Positions 12,946 through 62,093 of a DNA stretch of 64,000 nucleotides are shown one piece after another. The notes under the pieces are model-generated. The model ran no database searches. It was not told the origin of the DNA and saw only the letters and a program-made list of their open reading frames with translations. Location: assembly GCA_964463635.1 (NCBI GenBank), contig CAYXCB010000001.1, forward strand, positions 7,526-71,525, written 5' to 3'. The stretch is from an uncultured Candidatus Saccharibacteria bacterium. GTDB taxonomy: Bacteria > Patescibacteriota > Saccharimonadia > Saccharimonadales > CAZARM01. How positions within the stretch are numbered: the first letter of the stretch is position 1; each line of letters opens with the position of its first letter. The position numbers and the translations under genes were made by a program.

Positions 12946-13356
12946 CTATAATCTGTTTTTAGCTTCTAATTCGTGGATGCGCTGGTGGTCCAGCCCGTAG
13001 TAGTGTGCGATTTCGTGCCAGAGGGTGTGTTTGATCTTACTTTTGAAATCTTCTAGATCGGCTGAAGCATAGAAAAGAGGCAGCTTGAACAGAGTAATCT
13101 TGTCAGGCAGGACCAAATTGTAGCTGGCGTTGCGCTTAGTCAGCGGAATCCCCTCGTACAAGCCAAATAATGTCTGGCTGCAATGCAGTTTAAGCTTTTG
13201 GCGCTGGGTTTCAGTCGGTTCGTCCTCGTAGGTGACTAAAACGTTGTTGAGCCGGGTAATATACTCTTCGGGCAACTCATCCATAGCAGCCGATATATAC
13301 TTGTCGAAGTCTTCGTCTGAGATACTTAACATGTTAAGTATTGTATCACATAGCAC
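12946..13356 (-). CDS. zincin-like metallopeptidase family protein (PF06262-like); true start may be the ATG at ~13332
   Basis: C-terminal HEIAHYYGLDH (HExxH...H) in a ~130-aa protein. The start region is overlapped by a 22-bp palindromic MarR-type box. Confidence 0.55.
   Translation of the reverse strand: MLCDTILNMLSISDEDFDKYISAAMDELPEEYITRLNNVLVTYEDEPTETQRQKLKLHCSQTLFGLYEGIPLTKRNASYNLVLPDKITLFKLPLFYASADLEDFKSKIKHTLWHEIAHYYGLDHQRIHELEAKNRL
13321..13343. promoter_or_regulatory. palindromic operator (MarR-box-like) GATACTTAACATGTTAAGTATTG overlapping the start of the peptidase gene
   Basis: Perfect 14-bp palindrome CTTAACATGTTAAG plus flanks; near-identical 22-nt site at 18375..18398 directly upstream of marR. 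Confidence 0.55.
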
Positions 13357-13364
13357 AAATTATT

Positions 13365-13391
13365 TTGACATTTAGGCTTGAGCGTTATAAT
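13365..13391 (+). promoter_or_regulatory. candidate sigma70-type promoter (TTGACA ... TATAAT, 15-nt spacer) for a short plus-strand transcript
   Basis: TTGACA at 13365-13370 and TATAAT at 13386-13391; an intrinsic terminator follows ~150 nt downstream. Confidence 0.4.
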
Positions 13392-13399
13392 GAATAATA

Positions 13400-13565
13400 T
13401 GAACATTAACAAAAAGAGGGGAGGTAATCTTTTGAAACAAGTCCTAATATCTAACGGACAAGTATCTGTAGTTACGCGCGGGAGGTACGCGCTTAACTAA
13501 CCTCCCCTAGCTTGTCTAAGTAGGCAGAATATCTTGGCCGCTCCGACTCGTCGGGGCGGTTTTCT
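13400..13565 (+). ncRNA. candidate small transcript (sRNA or 22-codon leader peptide) bounded by promoter and intrinsic terminator
   Basis: Long-range pairing GGGGAGGT...ACCTCCCC, internal hairpin GCGCG-GGAGGTA-CGCGC, terminator stem CCGCTCCGAC/GTCGGGGCGG followed by TTTTCT. A TTG-initiated 22-codon ORF (MKQVLISNGQVSVVTRGRYALN) sits after a GAGGGGAGG Shine-Dalgarno. Confidence 0.35.
13538..13565 (+). terminator. intrinsic terminator
   Basis: GC-rich 8-10 bp stem (one G-U) followed by TTTTCT. Confidence 0.55.
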
Positions 13566-13710
13566 ATTGAAATTCGACAAAGATTACAAACCCAAGCCAG
13601 CTTACTTTTCAATGCGCGACGCCCTGGAACAAGACTAGTTTCTTTTTAGCCTTTTGACCAGTAAGGCTAAGGCAAAACCATTACGCTGCTTACTTCGTAA
13701 GCTTTAGCGC

Positions 13711-13740
13711 CATACTTTCTTGTGTCGACAAGAAAGTATG
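13711..13740. repeat. perfect 30-bp palindrome CATACTTTCTTGTGTCGACAAGAAAGTATG
   Basis: Exact 15+15 inverted repeat centred on GTCGAC inside a 950-bp non-coding region. Confidence 0.8.
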
Positions 13741-14254
13741 CAAAGAAACGACGGCTAGATAAAAAGCGTTACTTTGCACGGTTAAAATAAGCCGTGCCTG
13801 CGGAACGGTCCGCCCATGTCTGCGCATGGGGGACAACGGTCCAATTCTGTTTTCTTAGTAGAAGGAATTGGACTGGTCCTCAGCAATGACTCGGCTCATT
13901 TTAACCTTAGCAAAATCAGCTTTTTATAACCCGACCAAGACCATGGAATATCTGACGGCAAATAAATAATACTTTAGGCCATGGCGGCCCAGCCAGGCTC
14001 TGGAAGTTCCTGATGACTGAATGTCAAAGGCACAATTTCTGCGCAGGGGATGTTTAAGCCCATATCTCTTCTTTGAAGAATTAATGAAAGATATGGGTGA
14101 GTTCCCCGGAGCCTTGTGGTTCTTTGACATTCGAGCGATTAGCGAGAATGTATGCCGAGCCCAAGCAAACCAGTCCTTGAAAAAGAAAAAGTTTGCCTGG
14201 CGTGAAGCTATACAATGAAGTCATAAAGAACTGGAATTGCCTGGGAGTTTTTGC

Positions 14255-14280
14255 CCACCTTTTGGCGGACCAAAAGGTGG
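14255..14280. other. stable hairpin (11-bp stem CCACCTTTTGG / CCAAAAGGTGG, 4-nt loop) just 3' of the 14307..14963 gene; not a canonical terminator
   Basis: Perfect 11-bp stem with no downstream U-run on either strand. Confidence 0.5.
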
Positions 14281-14306
14281 AAAGATTGCTTCTTGGAAAG
14301 AAGAAA

Positions 14307-14963
14307 CTAGAGGCTGTCGCCGTCCATGGCCATAAATATGCCGCTTATTTTAGCTTGGGAGTCAAAAGTAAATGACACCACCATATCATCAGCTGACATA
14401 CCGACGAAAGCGCTTTCTGGGAAGTACTGCTTGTAGTCGCCAGTCCCCCATTTGGTAAGCGTAGCGGCTGGCAGAGAAAAGTCCCAGGGATCAGTAGCAC
14501 TATCCAGATATTTTAGATCGCTAATGGCTTGGGTTGGTGTCCGATCACCGATGCCTTCACTGGCCGCTAATATAACCTTTATCTTGGAGGCCATGTAGCC
14601 CTCCAGTGCCGCAGTGTTGCCGCTTTTAATGGCATCTTCGATGTTGGCCAGGGCTTCGGCAGTTGGCGCCTTGGTTTCGGCTACGGTTGCTGGTGTAGTA
14701 TCTTCCGCAGCTGCCTCTGATTCAAGCTGGCTTATTCTTAGTTGTAAAGCCATTATTTCTGATTTATGATTTTTGGCTTGGTCTTTGGCTTCCAGGTCTC
14801 GCCAATAATACGCGCCTCCGCCAGCAGCTAGCAAGAACAAAGTGAATAAAATAAACACTAGTAAAGATACGTTTCTCTTGGTGCCTTTTGCCTTCGACAC
14901 AGGTTGCGCCGCTTCGGGTTCAGTTTTCTGAGTTTGATTGTTTCGATTGAAGTCCATATCCAT
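14307..14963 (-). CDS. hypothetical membrane-anchored protein with coiled-coil segment
   Basis: N-terminal TM helix (LLVFILFTLFLLAAGGGAYYW) followed by a coiled-coil-like region; 218 aa. Confidence 0.45.
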   Translation of the reverse strand: MDMDFNRNNQTQKTEPEAAQPVSKAKGTKRNVSLLVFILFTLFLLAAGGGAYYWRDLEAKDQAKNHKSEIMALQLRISQLESEAAAEDTTPATVAETKAPTAEALANIEDAIKSGNTAALEGYMASKIKVILAASEGIGDRTPTQAISDLKYLDSATDPWDFSLPAATLTKWGTGDYKQYFPESAFVGMSADDMVVSFTFDSQAKISGIFMAMDGDSL

Positions 14964-15251
14964 AGTAATCCTTTTTAACAGTTAGGTGAATTGTAGCATA
15001 AGCACGTTGATATGCTGTAAAAACAAAGAGAAGCCTTTTGAGGGGCTTCTCTTTGTCGCAGCTTCAGCTTTTTACGGCCTGGGTGCTAATCACCTCACAG
15101 TGACTAAGGCTGACTATAGGCCTGAGCAAATAGCCTGTCAAGTACTTTAGTAATTTACCGCTGTTTGCCTGTTGTTAAACGAGCGAGCTTTCTTGCTGAC
15201 GGCCGCATGCAAGCTTGTTACGCTGAAATTGCATTAACATAGGAGGGACCA

Positions 15252-15383
15252 ATGGCAAAAGATAGAAAAGACTATAACGATATGACCCGCGAGGAACTCG
15301 TGGCGATTATTGGCATTGAAGACAATCCGAACTACACTCGAGTTGAGCTGATTGATATGGCTCGCGATCGAGACACTTCAATG
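15252..15383 (+). CDS. small hypothetical protein (43 aa), not in ORF track
   Basis: ATG preceded by AGGAGGGA Shine-Dalgarno at -7; MAKDRKDYNDMTREELVAIIGIEDNPNYTRVELIDMARDRDTSM; followed by a strong terminator. Confidence 0.4.
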
Positions 15384-15409
15384 TAAATATATTTTCCTAC
15401 CCCTAAAAA

Positions 15410-17260: not shown

Positions 17261-17886
17261 AAAAAAGAATCCTCTATATTTTTAACTTGTTACTTTGGTG
17301 CTTGATTGCTCAGATGAAGCCAAAGTGATAGTCAAAAACTCGGATTCATGGAAAGACAATACCTATACATTAGCATGATATCTGTCCTGAGTCAACGTTA
17401 TAACAAAAAAGCACCAGAAAATCTGATGCGTTTTTGGTGGAGCTGGTGGGTACTGCCCCCACGTCCGCTAGTTTAACTGGTTAGTCTATCCTACAGGTGT
17501 AGGTCATTTGAATACATCATGGGATAAAAATGACCAAAAAACCATGATGGTCGATCCTGATCTTAGTCCGACTACGGATCAATTGCCGAAAGCAATCAGA
17601 AAATATGTCACGCTGTATCGCTATCTGATGTCACAATAGGCGCGGCTTTAGAAATTAAGCTAAAGCTGGTGCGAACTGGCGACCGAAGAGAAGTGTTTTA
17701 CCACTCTCAAAGGCGCTAGCTACGCGATCAAGTAGTTTTGCAACTATTTGGGTTCGTCTATACGCTGACAAGCGACCTGCTGATCTAACCGTTAAAGTCC
17801 AACGTCGAGCTTAAAATTCAGCCCCGTATATGATTTATCACTTCTTACAGTGATCTGTACATTATACCACTTATGTCAATAAATTG

Positions 17887-32555: not shown

Positions 32556-32630
32556 GGTCTCATCGTCTAACGGTTAGGACACCAGGTTTTCATCCTGGCA
32601 ATCCGGGTTCGATTCCCGGTGAGATCACCA
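32556..32630 (+). tRNA. tRNA-Glu (anticodon UUC)
   Basis: Cloverleaf: acceptor GGTCTCA/TGAGATC, anticodon stem CCAGG/CCTGG with loop TTTTCAT, T-arm CCGGG-TTCGATT-CCCGG, encoded CCA. Confidence 0.8.
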
Positions 32631-60469: not shown

Positions 60470-62093
60470 AGCAATCGCACTATGTCGTGTATCAACTAAG
60501 GGTCAAATGCTAGACGGCAACCTTGAACCACAAAAGGAGAATGTAGAGAAAGCAGCTAATATTTTAGATACAGACCTAGTAAAAGTCTGGGCATTAGCCG
60601 TATCTAGTCGTAAGGGTAAAAACGTAAAGCGTAAAGATTTGCACGAAATGCGTGACTACTGCAAAAGATTCAAATCAGTTAAGTACCTAATAATAGACGA
60701 GCCAGACAGATTTATGCGCTCAATAAAAGAGTATTACTGGTGGAAAGTGGAATTTGAGCTTGTTGGTGTACAGATACGCTTTTCAAACAATCCAACTGCT
60801 GACCCCGAAGATGATAGGGTTGTATTTGATGAGCTGATAGATGTCTATCGTGCTGAGCAAAGTAACAATGAACGAATTAAGAAAACTCCAGGTAAAATGA
60901 TGGCAAAGATTCGGGCTGGCTACTATCCAAGTAATCCGCACACTGGCTATAAGAAGTCTGATATACCAGGTTTGCACGAACCAGATGAGCCAAACTGGTC
61001 AGCTATGCGAAGTACGTTCAAGGAAATGGTATCTGGTGAACTAACAGTTAGCGAGGGTCTTAAAGAAGTCACCAAACGTGGACTACGCACTAAGAACTAT
61101 GGACCGAAAGCTGTAGGTGGCAAAACAATTGATATGTTCCGCTGGAAAGCCCTTATGTGCGACCCGTACTATTACGGATTCCTTAAACTTGGCGATTGGT
61201 CAGAGGAAAATGCGAACGGTTTACATAAGACAATGATTACAAAGGAGGAACACGAAATACTTGTAGCGTTGGCAAAGAATAAGGGTAAACGATTTATAGT
61301 GAACCGAAACAATCCTGAATTCCCGTTCTCAAATGAGGCGGAATGTACGAGGTGTGTATTTTCTGATAATCCTTACCCTAGGTTAGTTGGCTACTGGCAA
61401 AATAATGGAGCAAAGAAAAACAGACTTAGGTATAGGCGTTACAGATGCAGAGACTGCAATCTTGGAGTGAGGCAAGAGGCACTCCACGAAGGCATAACGG
61501 AGGAGCTATCACAGCTCCTCTTGTCTTTAGAACAGAAAGAAAAGCTAAAGGAACACGCCCGAAAGATATGGCGGTCATACGAAAAAGTAAGGATTGAACA
61601 GGCTAGAATAGCCTTAGGACGACTTACAATACTGAAAGAAAAGAAGAACAAGTTCATTGAGAGCTTAGTAGCCAACCCAAACCTTGCAGAAGACATTCAA
61701 GAATCAATTGAACAGATTAAAAGTGATATTGTTGTAGCCGAACAGGAAGCGTCAGAAGCTCAAGACTTTGAAAAGGACTTCATAGAGTTTATAGGCTTTG
61801 CTTTTGACTTTATGGACAACTTAAAGGGTAAATGGTGGGAGTTAGACAAGGACACTATGAAAATATGTAAACAAGTGTTATTTCCGTGCGGAATCCAGCT
61901 ACTCCCAAATAAAAAAGTTTATATACCTAAAATTAGCCTAGTTTACGGGGGTGATGATAACAAAAAAGCCCCCGAAGGGGCTGATTTTACTAGACTGGAG
62001 GGCCCAGTGGGACTCGAACCCACGACACTCTGCTTAAGAGGCAGATGCTCTAACCAACTGAGCTATGGGCCCATATTCCAATTGTACATGTAG
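60456..62093 (+). CDS. large serine recombinase (resolvase domain + recombinase domain + zinc ribbon + coiled coil)
   Basis: N-terminal IALCRVSTKGQ (catalytic Ser), DEPDRFMRS, recombinase-domain block, CTRC...CRDC zinc ribbon, C-terminal coiled coil; last ~30 codons overlap tRNA-Lys on the opposite strand. Confidence 0.8.
   Translation: MLRTKAIALCRVSTKGQMLDGNLEPQKENVEKAANILDTDLVKVWALAVSSRKGKNVKRKDLHEMRDYCKRFKSVKYLIIDEPDRFMRSIKEYYWWKVEFELVGVQIRFSNNPTADPEDDRVVFDELIDVYRAEQSNNERIKKTPGKMMAKIRAGYYPSNPHTGYKKSDIPGLHEPDEPNWSAMRSTFKEMVSGELTVSEGLKEVTKRGLRTKNYGPKAVGGKTIDMFRWKALMCDPYYYGFLKLGDWSEENANGLHKTMITKEEHEILVALAKNKGKRFIVNRNNPEFPFSNEAECTRCVFSDNPYPRLVGYWQNNGAKKNRLRYRRYRCRDCNLGVRQEALHEGITEELSQLLLSLEQKEKLKEHARKIWRSYEKVRIEQARIALGRLTILKEKKNKFIESLVANPNLAEDIQESIEQIKSDIVVAEQEASEAQDFEKDFIEFIGFAFDFMDNLKGKWWELDKDTMKICKQVLFPCGIQLLPNKKVYIPKISLVYGGDDNKKAPEGADFTRLEGPVGLEPTTLCLRGRCSNQLSYGPIFQLYM
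61996..62072 (-). tRNA. tRNA-Lys (anticodon CUU)
   Basis: GGGCCCATAGCTCAGTTGGTTAGAGCATCTGCCTCTTAAGCAGAGTGTCGTGGGTTCGAGTCCCACTGGGCCCTCCA: full cloverleaf, anticodon loop CTCTTAA, encoded CCA. Confidence 0.8.

Follow-up and report, generated by a model that had tools for sequence, protein, structure and literature searches.

Between the gene for a Zincin_1 metallopeptidase (12946-13332) and that for a 218-amino-acid (aa) protein (14307-14963), both on the minus strand, the Saccharibacteria DNA studied here has a gap at 13357-14306; the window, in what follows, is the whole stretch of 64,000 nucleotides (nt) that was analysed. The 218-aa protein is membrane-anchored and of unknown function. Gene packing in the window is compact, with the minus strand predominant, and the close relatives of its MgtE protein in the genome collection all come from metagenome-assembled genomes of Saccharibacteria (TM7). 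No open reading frame (ORF) of at least 100 aa lies between the two genes, and the gap is the largest between listed ORFs of that size in the window; it had been called unusually large when the sequence was read without database searches. That sequence-only reading implied that the 950 base pairs (bp) are one non-coding element, a description that did not survive comparison: a strong terminator divides the region, and L066, the closest relative, has nothing that corresponds to 13639-14306. We give a probability of roughly 0.6 to the gap being a mosaic of three unrelated parts: a small gene, a relic of a GH10 glycosidase gene and dispensable hairpin DNA (Table 1).

Results

The gap and its relatives

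Among the loci fetched for comparison L066 is the closest, its peptidase, MgtE and DEAD-box proteins being 88-89% identical to those of the window and its 218-aa protein 69%; because the next homologue of the 218-aa protein in the protein collection reaches at most 61% identity, that collection holds no nearer relative. The order of the 218-aa gene, the peptidase gene and mgtE is the same in L066, where the intergenic region at the position of the gap measures 268 bp and contains the small unit alone. Conservation in relatives is limited to the first ~270 nt of the gap.

Measured against shuffled controls, the whole gap folds with a z of -6.7 on the plus strand and -8.6 on the minus strand. 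A sliding fold scan found the flanking coding DNA to be ordinary and the spacers structured, and perfect stems of at least 11 bp are rare elsewhere in the window, where they lie mostly just beyond the ends of listed ORFs, the places in which terminators are expected. Rfam 15 gave as its best matches over 13200-14450 mir-363 (15 bits, E 4.2) and Acido-Lenti-1 (12.8 bits, E 6.5). Run at gathering and E-value thresholds over the gap, eight homologous loci, a second spacer and four phage loci, it returned nothing relevant; in the gap no family of any kind was matched, in agreement with the earlier failure to see RNase P, tmRNA, signal recognition particle or 6S signatures by eye. The gap nucleotides have no similarity to phage GenBank records. 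Of the checks that had been proposed for this DNA, the Rfam scan yielded no family, and the comparison with relatives found 13365-13566 conserved and the remainder without a counterpart in L066.

Table 1. Features of the gap, with positions in the window; z is the fold score on the plus/minus strand
Feature	Position	Strand	Description
Promoter	13365-13391	+	-35 TTGACA (13365-13370), 15-nt spacer, -10 TATAAT (13386-13391)
Predicted small RNA, ~168 nt	13399-13566	+	Family conservation; fold z -3.6
Purine run and GGTAATC	13416-13429	+	5' strand of P1 (13417-13425) and of P0 (13421-13429); Shine-Dalgarno-like
Hairpin 1 (hp1), GTCC/GGAC	13441-13459	+	11-nt loop; within near-invariant core AAGTCCTA.ATCTAACGGACA
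Long-range helix (LR)	13457-13516	+	GACAAG (13457-13462) with CTTGTC (13511-13516)
3' strand of P0, GAATATCTT	13527-13535	+	P0 pairing
Intrinsic terminator	13536-13566	+	11-bp GC-rich stem, 4-nt loop, then TTTTCTATT
GH10 glycosidase relic	13567-13638	+	Last 23 codons and stop; similarity to L002 protein
D1	13639-13757 (119 nt)		Three hairpins, closing TTTCTTT/AAAGAAA; z -4.5/-4.6
D2	13758-13928 (171 nt)		Closed rod ATAAAAAGC/GCTTTTTAT with forked tip; z -6.8/-9.5
D3	14011-14140 (130 nt)		Closed rod GAATGTCAAAG/CTTTGACATTC around CCCATATCT hairpin; z -4.7/-5.2
D5	14255-14306 (52 nt)	-	Two hairpins directly past the stop of the 218-aa gene; z -4.6/-5.3

The small unit

Both boxes of the TTGACA...TATAAT promoter noticed in the earlier reading are present at the start of the unit, although a consensus scan called no promoter because they stand 15 nt apart. 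The -10 box is identical in L066, L001, L002 and L057, and the segment GAGCGnTATAAT of the promoter region is kept in L066 and L001. Transcription from this sigma-70-type promoter would give a transcript of ~168 nt ending at the intrinsic terminator, which had been placed at 13538-13565 and whose stem we find at 13536-13561 with the T run after it. All family members have an equivalent GC-rich hairpin and T run (3 to 5 T, just 3 in L057), and their terminator stems are unlike one another in sequence. With its own promoter and its own terminator, independent of its neighbours, the segment 13365-13566 has at the level of sequence the make-up of a stand-alone small RNA (sRNA) gene and, on that evidence, counts as a small gene in its own right, which a subgroup of Saccharibacteria has conserved.

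Searches with nhmmer and a covariance model (R1) found the unit in 13 loci besides the window (L001, L002, L055-L061 and L063-L066), 11 of them with a distinct sequence. Profile hidden Markov model (HMM) and covariance model agree on exactly one copy in each positive locus and none elsewhere in the 573 kb searched. Scanning metagenomes with a 20-nt pattern taken from the core gave 11 loci, of which ten carry the unit; the eleventh is coding DNA and was set aside as a chance match. The pattern played no part in finding four members, namely the window, L066, L001 and L002. When the unit is aligned with L001 and L002, the -10 box, the 5' core, the 3' motif and the terminator prove to be conserved, the L002 copy having ~190 nt extra in its middle. 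No Rfam family matched the unit in the eight homologous loci, a pattern scan of viral contigs with the small-RNA core gave zero matches, and the complement of the hp1 loop, sought as a possible target, has no other occurrence in the window. The unit apparently represents a new small RNA or small ORF family.

In every member of one sub-clade (L058, L059, L060 and L063) a ~120-aa gene (MHYHELIRRIK...DDESQDALELVVENVAAHL) lies upstream of the small RNA and points away from it, with a ~61-aa His-rich ORF nearby, so that local synteny is conserved there. The peptidase gene on the other side of the promoter seems to be leaderless, with an extended -10 element TGATACAAT, 7 nt and then ATG at 13330-13348 on the minus strand; the small RNA has the same geometry at 13386-13401 on the plus strand, where TATAAT is followed after 7 nt by the ATG at 13399.

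Fold and covariation

The long-range pairing GGGGAGGT/ACCTCCCC seen in the first reading joins 13417-13425 with 13500-13508 and is helix P1 of our model; RNAalifold recovered it together with hp1, a second hairpin (hp2) and a small 3' hairpin. Covariation was tested on a 9-sequence alignment (A3), with slid structures and 500 shuffles as controls. P1, LR and hp2 together have 91.8% of cells paired against 43-57% in the slid controls, eight pairs with changes on both sides and a covariation score that none of the 500 shuffles reached; across the tests that include a further long-range pairing, P0, the figures are 92-96% against 28-57%, with 6-8 double-change pairs. P1 itself is 98% paired and has an A-U/G-C exchange at column 15/99. 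GGTAATC is invariant across the family alignment. In P0 the segment GGAGGUAAUC meets the distal GAAUACCUU; 100% of the P0 cells are paired, and six of its eight pairs vary on one side with the wobble pair always retained.

LR pairs the segment after hp1 (GACAGG... in the family) with the segment before UACGUAGGC, enclosing hp2 (13470-13498) and the 3' strand of P1 (13500-13508), and forms in 12 of 12 members at -9 to -20 kcal/mol when each sequence is submitted to duplexfold; since it crosses P1, the fold would be a pseudoknot. Compensatory changes in LR include a G-C to A-U replacement in the window, whose copy retains all the helices, and the hp2 stem has double changes at four of its five pairs. 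The stem of hp1 never varies and so lies beyond covariation testing. Covariation thus supports P1, hp2 and LR, which in the model make up a compact pseudoknot.

In the arrangement that we propose, the 5' purine run and GGUAAUC would pair with the pyrimidine run after the stop of an embedded ORF (P1) and/or with the distal GAAUACCUU (P0), while LR and the covarying hp2 with its GAGGUAC loop would sit between those strands. P1 and P0 would then hide the Shine-Dalgarno-like run of the embedded 21-22-codon TTG ORF, and the act of translating this ORF, rather than the peptide, might rearrange the fold or lend the RNA stability. A partner is likely to bind at the 21-nt core AAGUCCUA.AUCUAACGGACA, which is nearly invariant.

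Genes downstream of the unit

What follows the unit varies. An intact, co-directional GH10 gene begins 95 nt on in L002; a gene relic follows in the window, in L066 and in L001, accompanied in L001 by a 269-aa gene. In L055/L056, L061/L065, L063 and L064 the nearest ORF of some size downstream is convergent, and in L057, L058 and L059 the genes that follow run in the direction of the unit but are unrelated. After the loss of GH10 the unit has stayed intact in both the window and L066, and in L066 it stops 24 nt short of a convergent gene. Thus the unit is not followed by recurring related genes, as the aptamer of a riboswitch would be, nor by the conserved co-directional operon of an attenuator with a competing antiterminator. 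The terminator stems are wholly different while the segment before them is conserved, and no conserved pairing of that invariant segment with the variable terminator arms, of the kind an antiterminator would need, was evident by inspection rather than by a formal scan. Because downstream genes differ between loci, a leader or riboswitch role for the unit was rejected. Of the earlier suggestion of an sRNA or a 22-codon leader peptide, the conserved unit bounded by promoter and terminator therefore stands and the leader, with its inconsistent downstream genes, does not.

The GH10 relic

Directly after the terminator the plus strand reads (L)KFDKDYKPKPAYFSMRDALEQD*, which tblastn aligns with the L002 protein at 73% identity over 22 aa (E 3.5e-5) and BLASTP at 68% identity (E 9e-10) with residues 345-366 of that 367-aa protein. 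The latter follows the small RNA in L002 and matches Pfam Glyco_hydro_10 (E 5e-76). Similarity, a collinear C-terminus and stop, and syntenic position together mark a pseudogene relic. To judge from these alignments, the ancestor had a GH10 gene behind the small gene, an arrangement that L002 retains, and the remainder of that gene has been deleted; since the last 22 residues of the L002 protein are matched, the window would have lost ~1.1 kb, from the terminator to about codon 344. L001 has a more decayed relic, and in L066 only ~14 nt are left (ATGCAGACGCCTGG). The possibility, raised beforehand, that the gap holds decaying pseudogene remnants applies to one piece, 13567-13638.

The hairpin-rich stretch

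The 668 nt (~670 bases) at 13639-14306 account for nearly all of the sequence absent from L066 (~680 bp, 13628-14306). They fold with a z of -8.5 on the plus strand and -9.7 on the minus strand, and their modules form separate closed rods (z -4.5 to -9.5). D2 is the inverted repeat I1, whose minus-strand fold gains extra G-U pairs. The D5 hairpins are an 11-bp stem at 14255-14280 and CTTCTT/AAGAAG, neither with a T run after it. That 11-bp stem was among the further hairpins listed in the first reading, and the other two were also recovered: CCAATTC/GAATTGG at 13841-13847/13865-13871 and CCCATATCT/AGATATGGG at 14059-14067/14089-14097.

Six-frame Pfam searches and tblastx against all loci gave no coding signal in 13639-14306, and no homologue was found for a 65-aa ORF at 14021-14218. 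At the equivalent position L001 has its 269-aa gene, homologues of which are convergent with the 218-aa gene in L067 and L070-L072; an HMM of this 266/269-aa family (from L001, L067 and L070) gave no signal in the gap. Neither the 14059 hairpin nor the 14255 hairpin, scanned as a pattern, matched any viral contig. A 13-nt inverted repeat containing CTAG, CTAGTTTCTTTTT/AAGAAGAAACTAG, bounds the stretch at 13635-13647 and 14298-14310. Judged against L066, 13639-14306 is lineage-specific, dispensable non-coding DNA. L066 for its part has, at ~2213-2380, a long-hairpin insertion of ~165 nt between a second small unit (see below) and the 218-aa gene, an insertion that the window does not have; a related sequence (80% over 54 nt) occurs at 8576-8628 of L002, within the ~190-nt insertion of the small RNA. 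These related hairpins suggest that mobile hairpin elements exist in the clade.

A hairpin shared with a phage contig

Inside D1 lies what had been taken for an exact 30-bp palindrome. It is instead a 13-bp perfect stem (13711-13723/13728-13740) with a non-palindromic 4-nt loop, GTCG, and it continues into a tail at 13741-13749, the whole reading CATACTTTCTTGT-GTCG-ACAAGAAAGTATG-CAAAGAAAC. Hairpin and tail occur once in the window and recur at 2549-2590 of L002, 23 nt past the peptidase stop, with the outer pair changed from A-T to T-A. An exact 22-nt pattern scan of viral contigs returned a single phage contig, L073 (IMGVR_UViG_3300028797_006161), which has terminase, major head and tail genes. 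There the hairpin and tail (1374-1415, 90% identity over 39 nt) lie in a 568-nt non-coding region upstream of the terminase gene, and the CAAAGAAAC tail is present though the pattern did not require it. A relaxed hairpin pattern drew in more phage contigs (L074-L084, including L079 and L082) whose outer stems covary; that pattern is of low complexity, its matches may be partly chance and nine of them are identical or nearly identical copies of one region, so that only the matches in L073 and L002 are taken as solid. On these comparisons the hairpin is a conserved motif in its own right; it may bind a protein, act in the processing or stability of an RNA, or mark where a mobile element ends. 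Two other candidates were rejected: a CRISPR (clustered regularly interspaced short palindromic repeat) repeat or solitary unit, as no direct-repeat array stands at the motif in L073, L079 or L082, and an attachment site, as there is no integrase among the nine L073 ORFs scanned.

Neighbouring features

Upstream of the 218-aa gene, at 15020-15145 on the minus strand, there is a further small unit that is conserved, with a TTGACAGG...TATAGT promoter, a predicted transcript of ~95 nt and a 13-bp terminator stem at 15023-15056. Its L066 counterpart is 89% identical over 134 nt, L002 has an identical 23-nt core, and Rfam matched no family to the unit, which may act as a leader for the 218-aa gene or represent one more small RNA. 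The neighbouring 468-bp spacer also holds a 44-aa ORF, MAKDRKDYNDMTREELVAIIGIEDNPNYTRVELIDMARDRDTSM, at 15252-15386 on the plus strand, with an AGGAGGG ribosome-binding site and no Pfam match. Further off, the window has a tmRNA gene at 17435-17825 on the minus strand (Rfam RF00023, 50.9 bits) and tRNA genes at 32556-32627 (plus) and 61999-62072 (minus).

Discussion

Our comparisons resolve the gap into a conserved small gene, the end of a lost glycosidase gene and a block of hairpin DNA peculiar to one lineage. The modules D1, D2, D3 and D5 would most likely be hairpins left by gene loss and rearrangement together with small mobile hairpin insertions, and 13639-14306 is probably not one functional long RNA. 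Several points weigh on the other side. Fold z-scores as extreme as these would also suit a genuine structured RNA; no second copy of any D module exists in the window or the fetched loci; the terminal inverted repeat is short; and since L066 also lacks the natural end of the GH10 relic, a gain in the window and a loss in L066 look the same. For the small unit, the family alignment is small (9-12 distinct sequences), and the invariance of the core looks inflated because ten members were found by the exact 20-nt pattern. P1 joins two low-complexity runs and its register shifts between members, the changes in P0 are one-sided only, and the two helices overlap by 4-5 nt, so that they may coexist as a stacked pseudoknot or alternate. 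The transcription start, the termination point and the translation of the unit are all predicted from sequence. The embedded frame is open more often than chance would have it (~0.008 for independent events), which lends a coding function some probability.

It is possible, if on balance improbable, that 13639-14306 consists of one or several mobile hairpins of the kind of miniature inverted-repeat transposable elements (MITEs) or REPINs, with the GH10 relic on one side of the insertion and the stop of the 218-aa gene on the other. The CTAG inverted repeat stands exactly at both ends of the stretch and the D1 hairpin motif occurs in a phage contig. Like MITEs, REPINs and Correia-type elements, D1-D3 are non-coding rods of 119-171 bp in an intergenic spacer, each closed on itself and absent from the nearest relative, and a comparable hairpin indel of ~165 nt exists in relatives, with a related copy inside the small RNA gene of L002. 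Unlike those elements the D modules are single-copy in the window, where, as in the fetched loci, the several dispersed copies of a mobile family were not found, and their terminal repeats are short. No target duplication can be demonstrated, D2 and D3 having no clear one, and no partner transposase was noticed in protein-family scans that covered the flanking ORFs. The left CTAG, moreover, doubles as the GH10 stop, and L066 has lost sequence at that place, which makes the polarity of the indel ambiguous.

Whether the small unit might rather be the messenger of a protein of 21-22 residues (M-x-SPRSNGQ...SEVL), its structure merely tuning translation through a hidden Shine-Dalgarno sequence, depends on the embedded ORF, which the first reading had correctly counted at 22 codons in the window (TTG at 13432 to TAA at 13500 on the plus strand, MKQVLISNGQVSVVTRGRYALN). 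An open frame, a start and a ribosome-binding site are all present. The TTG is invariant, 6-8 nt past GGAGGT/GGGGGT; in 11 of 12 members the frame runs for 21-22 codons to a stop at an equivalent CTAA/CTAG just ahead of the 3' strand of P1; net indels are multiples of three; and in 7 of 12 members an ATG further upstream, the one at 13399 or another, shares its frame. The variable part has 12 distinct stop triplets out of frame and none in frame, and the chance of a frame staying open in this way is ~(2/3)^12 = 0.008 if the events are taken as independent. Conservation at the level of amino acids is not seen, however: the peptide alignment has a mean column identity of 44%, and the window peptide, in which the frame is twice shifted and restored, has no more than SNGQVS in common with the consensus. 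The changes among the members found without the pattern (window, L066, L001 and L002) include one replaced amino acid as well as frameshifts. In L061 the stop is lost and the frame extends to 29 codons, and L055 and L064 have LGGL for SEVL with the hairpin preserved. Codons 10-16 vary freely while their bases covary with the 3' strand of LR, so that compensatory changes in the RNA alter the encoded amino acids, and the supposed spacer UAAUC(C) is invariant whereas the GGAGG core varies with its pairing partner, the opposite of a plain ribosome-binding site. We consider a messenger of this kind unlikely; in our reading the constraint falls mainly on the RNA, with the frame kept translatable, and the function of the unit would lie mainly at the RNA level.

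Known bacterial sRNAs that contain a short ORF include SgrS/SgrT, SR1/SR1P and RNAIII/hld. Like these dual-function RNAs, the unit has its own promoter and intrinsic terminator, a length of ~170 nt, conserved structure and a short ORF with its own ribosome-binding site. Unlike them, it has its ORF within the core of the pseudoknot and a peptide that is not conserved, and it lacks sequence or covariance-model similarity to such families. A bolder proposal is that the unit may found a new class of pseudoknotted RNA confined to Saccharibacteria, members of the candidate phyla radiation (CPR), in which translation of the ORF would switch between P1 and P0 and so couple ribosome availability to exposure of the 21-nt effector loop, and that the hairpin with its CAAAGAAAC tail may be a recognition site exchanged between Saccharibacteria and phages as an attachment site, an operator or a mimic of a solitary repeat. 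Taken jointly, these two ideas strike us as quite doubtful. The hairpin and CAAAGAAAC, single-copy in the phage contig, resemble a CRISPR repeat or phage solitary repeat unit, a hairpin with a tail ending in GAAAC; unlike a CRISPR repeat, the motif has no array in the three loci checked and no cas genes were seen, and its 13-bp stem is longer than is typical of such repeats.

We regard as decidedly improbable a single large structured non-coding RNA spanning 13639-14306 or the whole gap, for example a 3' untranslated region (UTR) of the 218-aa gene or a long minus-strand RNA. The z-scores over 668 nt, and that of D2 on the minus strand, would be in keeping with such an RNA, as would the modular architecture of closed domains. 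On the minus strand a terminator-like hairpin with a T-rich tail, running from 13991 to 13975, comes ~320 nt after the 218-aa gene has ended; termination there would place D3-D5 in the transcript of that gene as a structured 3' UTR of ~330 nt. Yet the closest relative, with the same gene order, has no such sequence, and apart from the 40-nt hairpin motif the stretch is unlike anything in phage records or in ~1 Mb of related loci. Rfam matches nothing in it, and the two strands fold about equally well, as expected of DNA palindromes and not of a strand-specific RNA.

That the unit is a cis-regulatory attenuator or riboswitch which once served the GH10 gene and was orphaned in the window would fit the gene or relic after it in L002 and L001 and its attenuator-like layout, in which a structured RNA containing a short ORF lies between promoter and terminator, but is very unlikely in view of its survival without GH10, the convergent or unrelated genes downstream, the unmatched terminator stems and the absence of any match to a ligand-type riboswitch family of Rfam. 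The likeness to known leaders is partial. In preQ1-II and SAM-II/V riboswitches, too, a purine-rich ribosome-binding segment enters a pseudoknot helix with a downstream pyrimidine strand; those riboswitches lie ahead of metabolic genes that recur from case to case, with no terminator of their own in between, whereas the small unit stands by itself, would control no more than its own 21-codon ORF and has no Rfam match. With the trp, his and pheA leader attenuators it shares a short ORF that overlaps helices and is followed by an intrinsic terminator. Unlike them it has no conserved regulatory codons that we noticed, short of a formal analysis, no evident conserved pairing that would compete with the terminator and no conserved operon downstream.

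Saccharibacteria have genomes of ~1 Mb and are just beginning to be genetically tractable. We know of almost no described regulatory RNAs in them, and our search of the literature on small RNAs of Saccharibacteria or the CPR found nothing relevant. On the mosaic reading, the spacer is a record of recent genome erosion, in which a glycosidase gene has been cut down to its last 23 codons and stop. It also counsels caution, since extreme predicted structure in a large spacer may stem from gene relics and dispensable hairpins and not only from a functional long RNA. A conserved, self-contained, pseudoknotted sRNA that is absent from Rfam would add to these bacteria both a candidate regulator and a defined experimental target.

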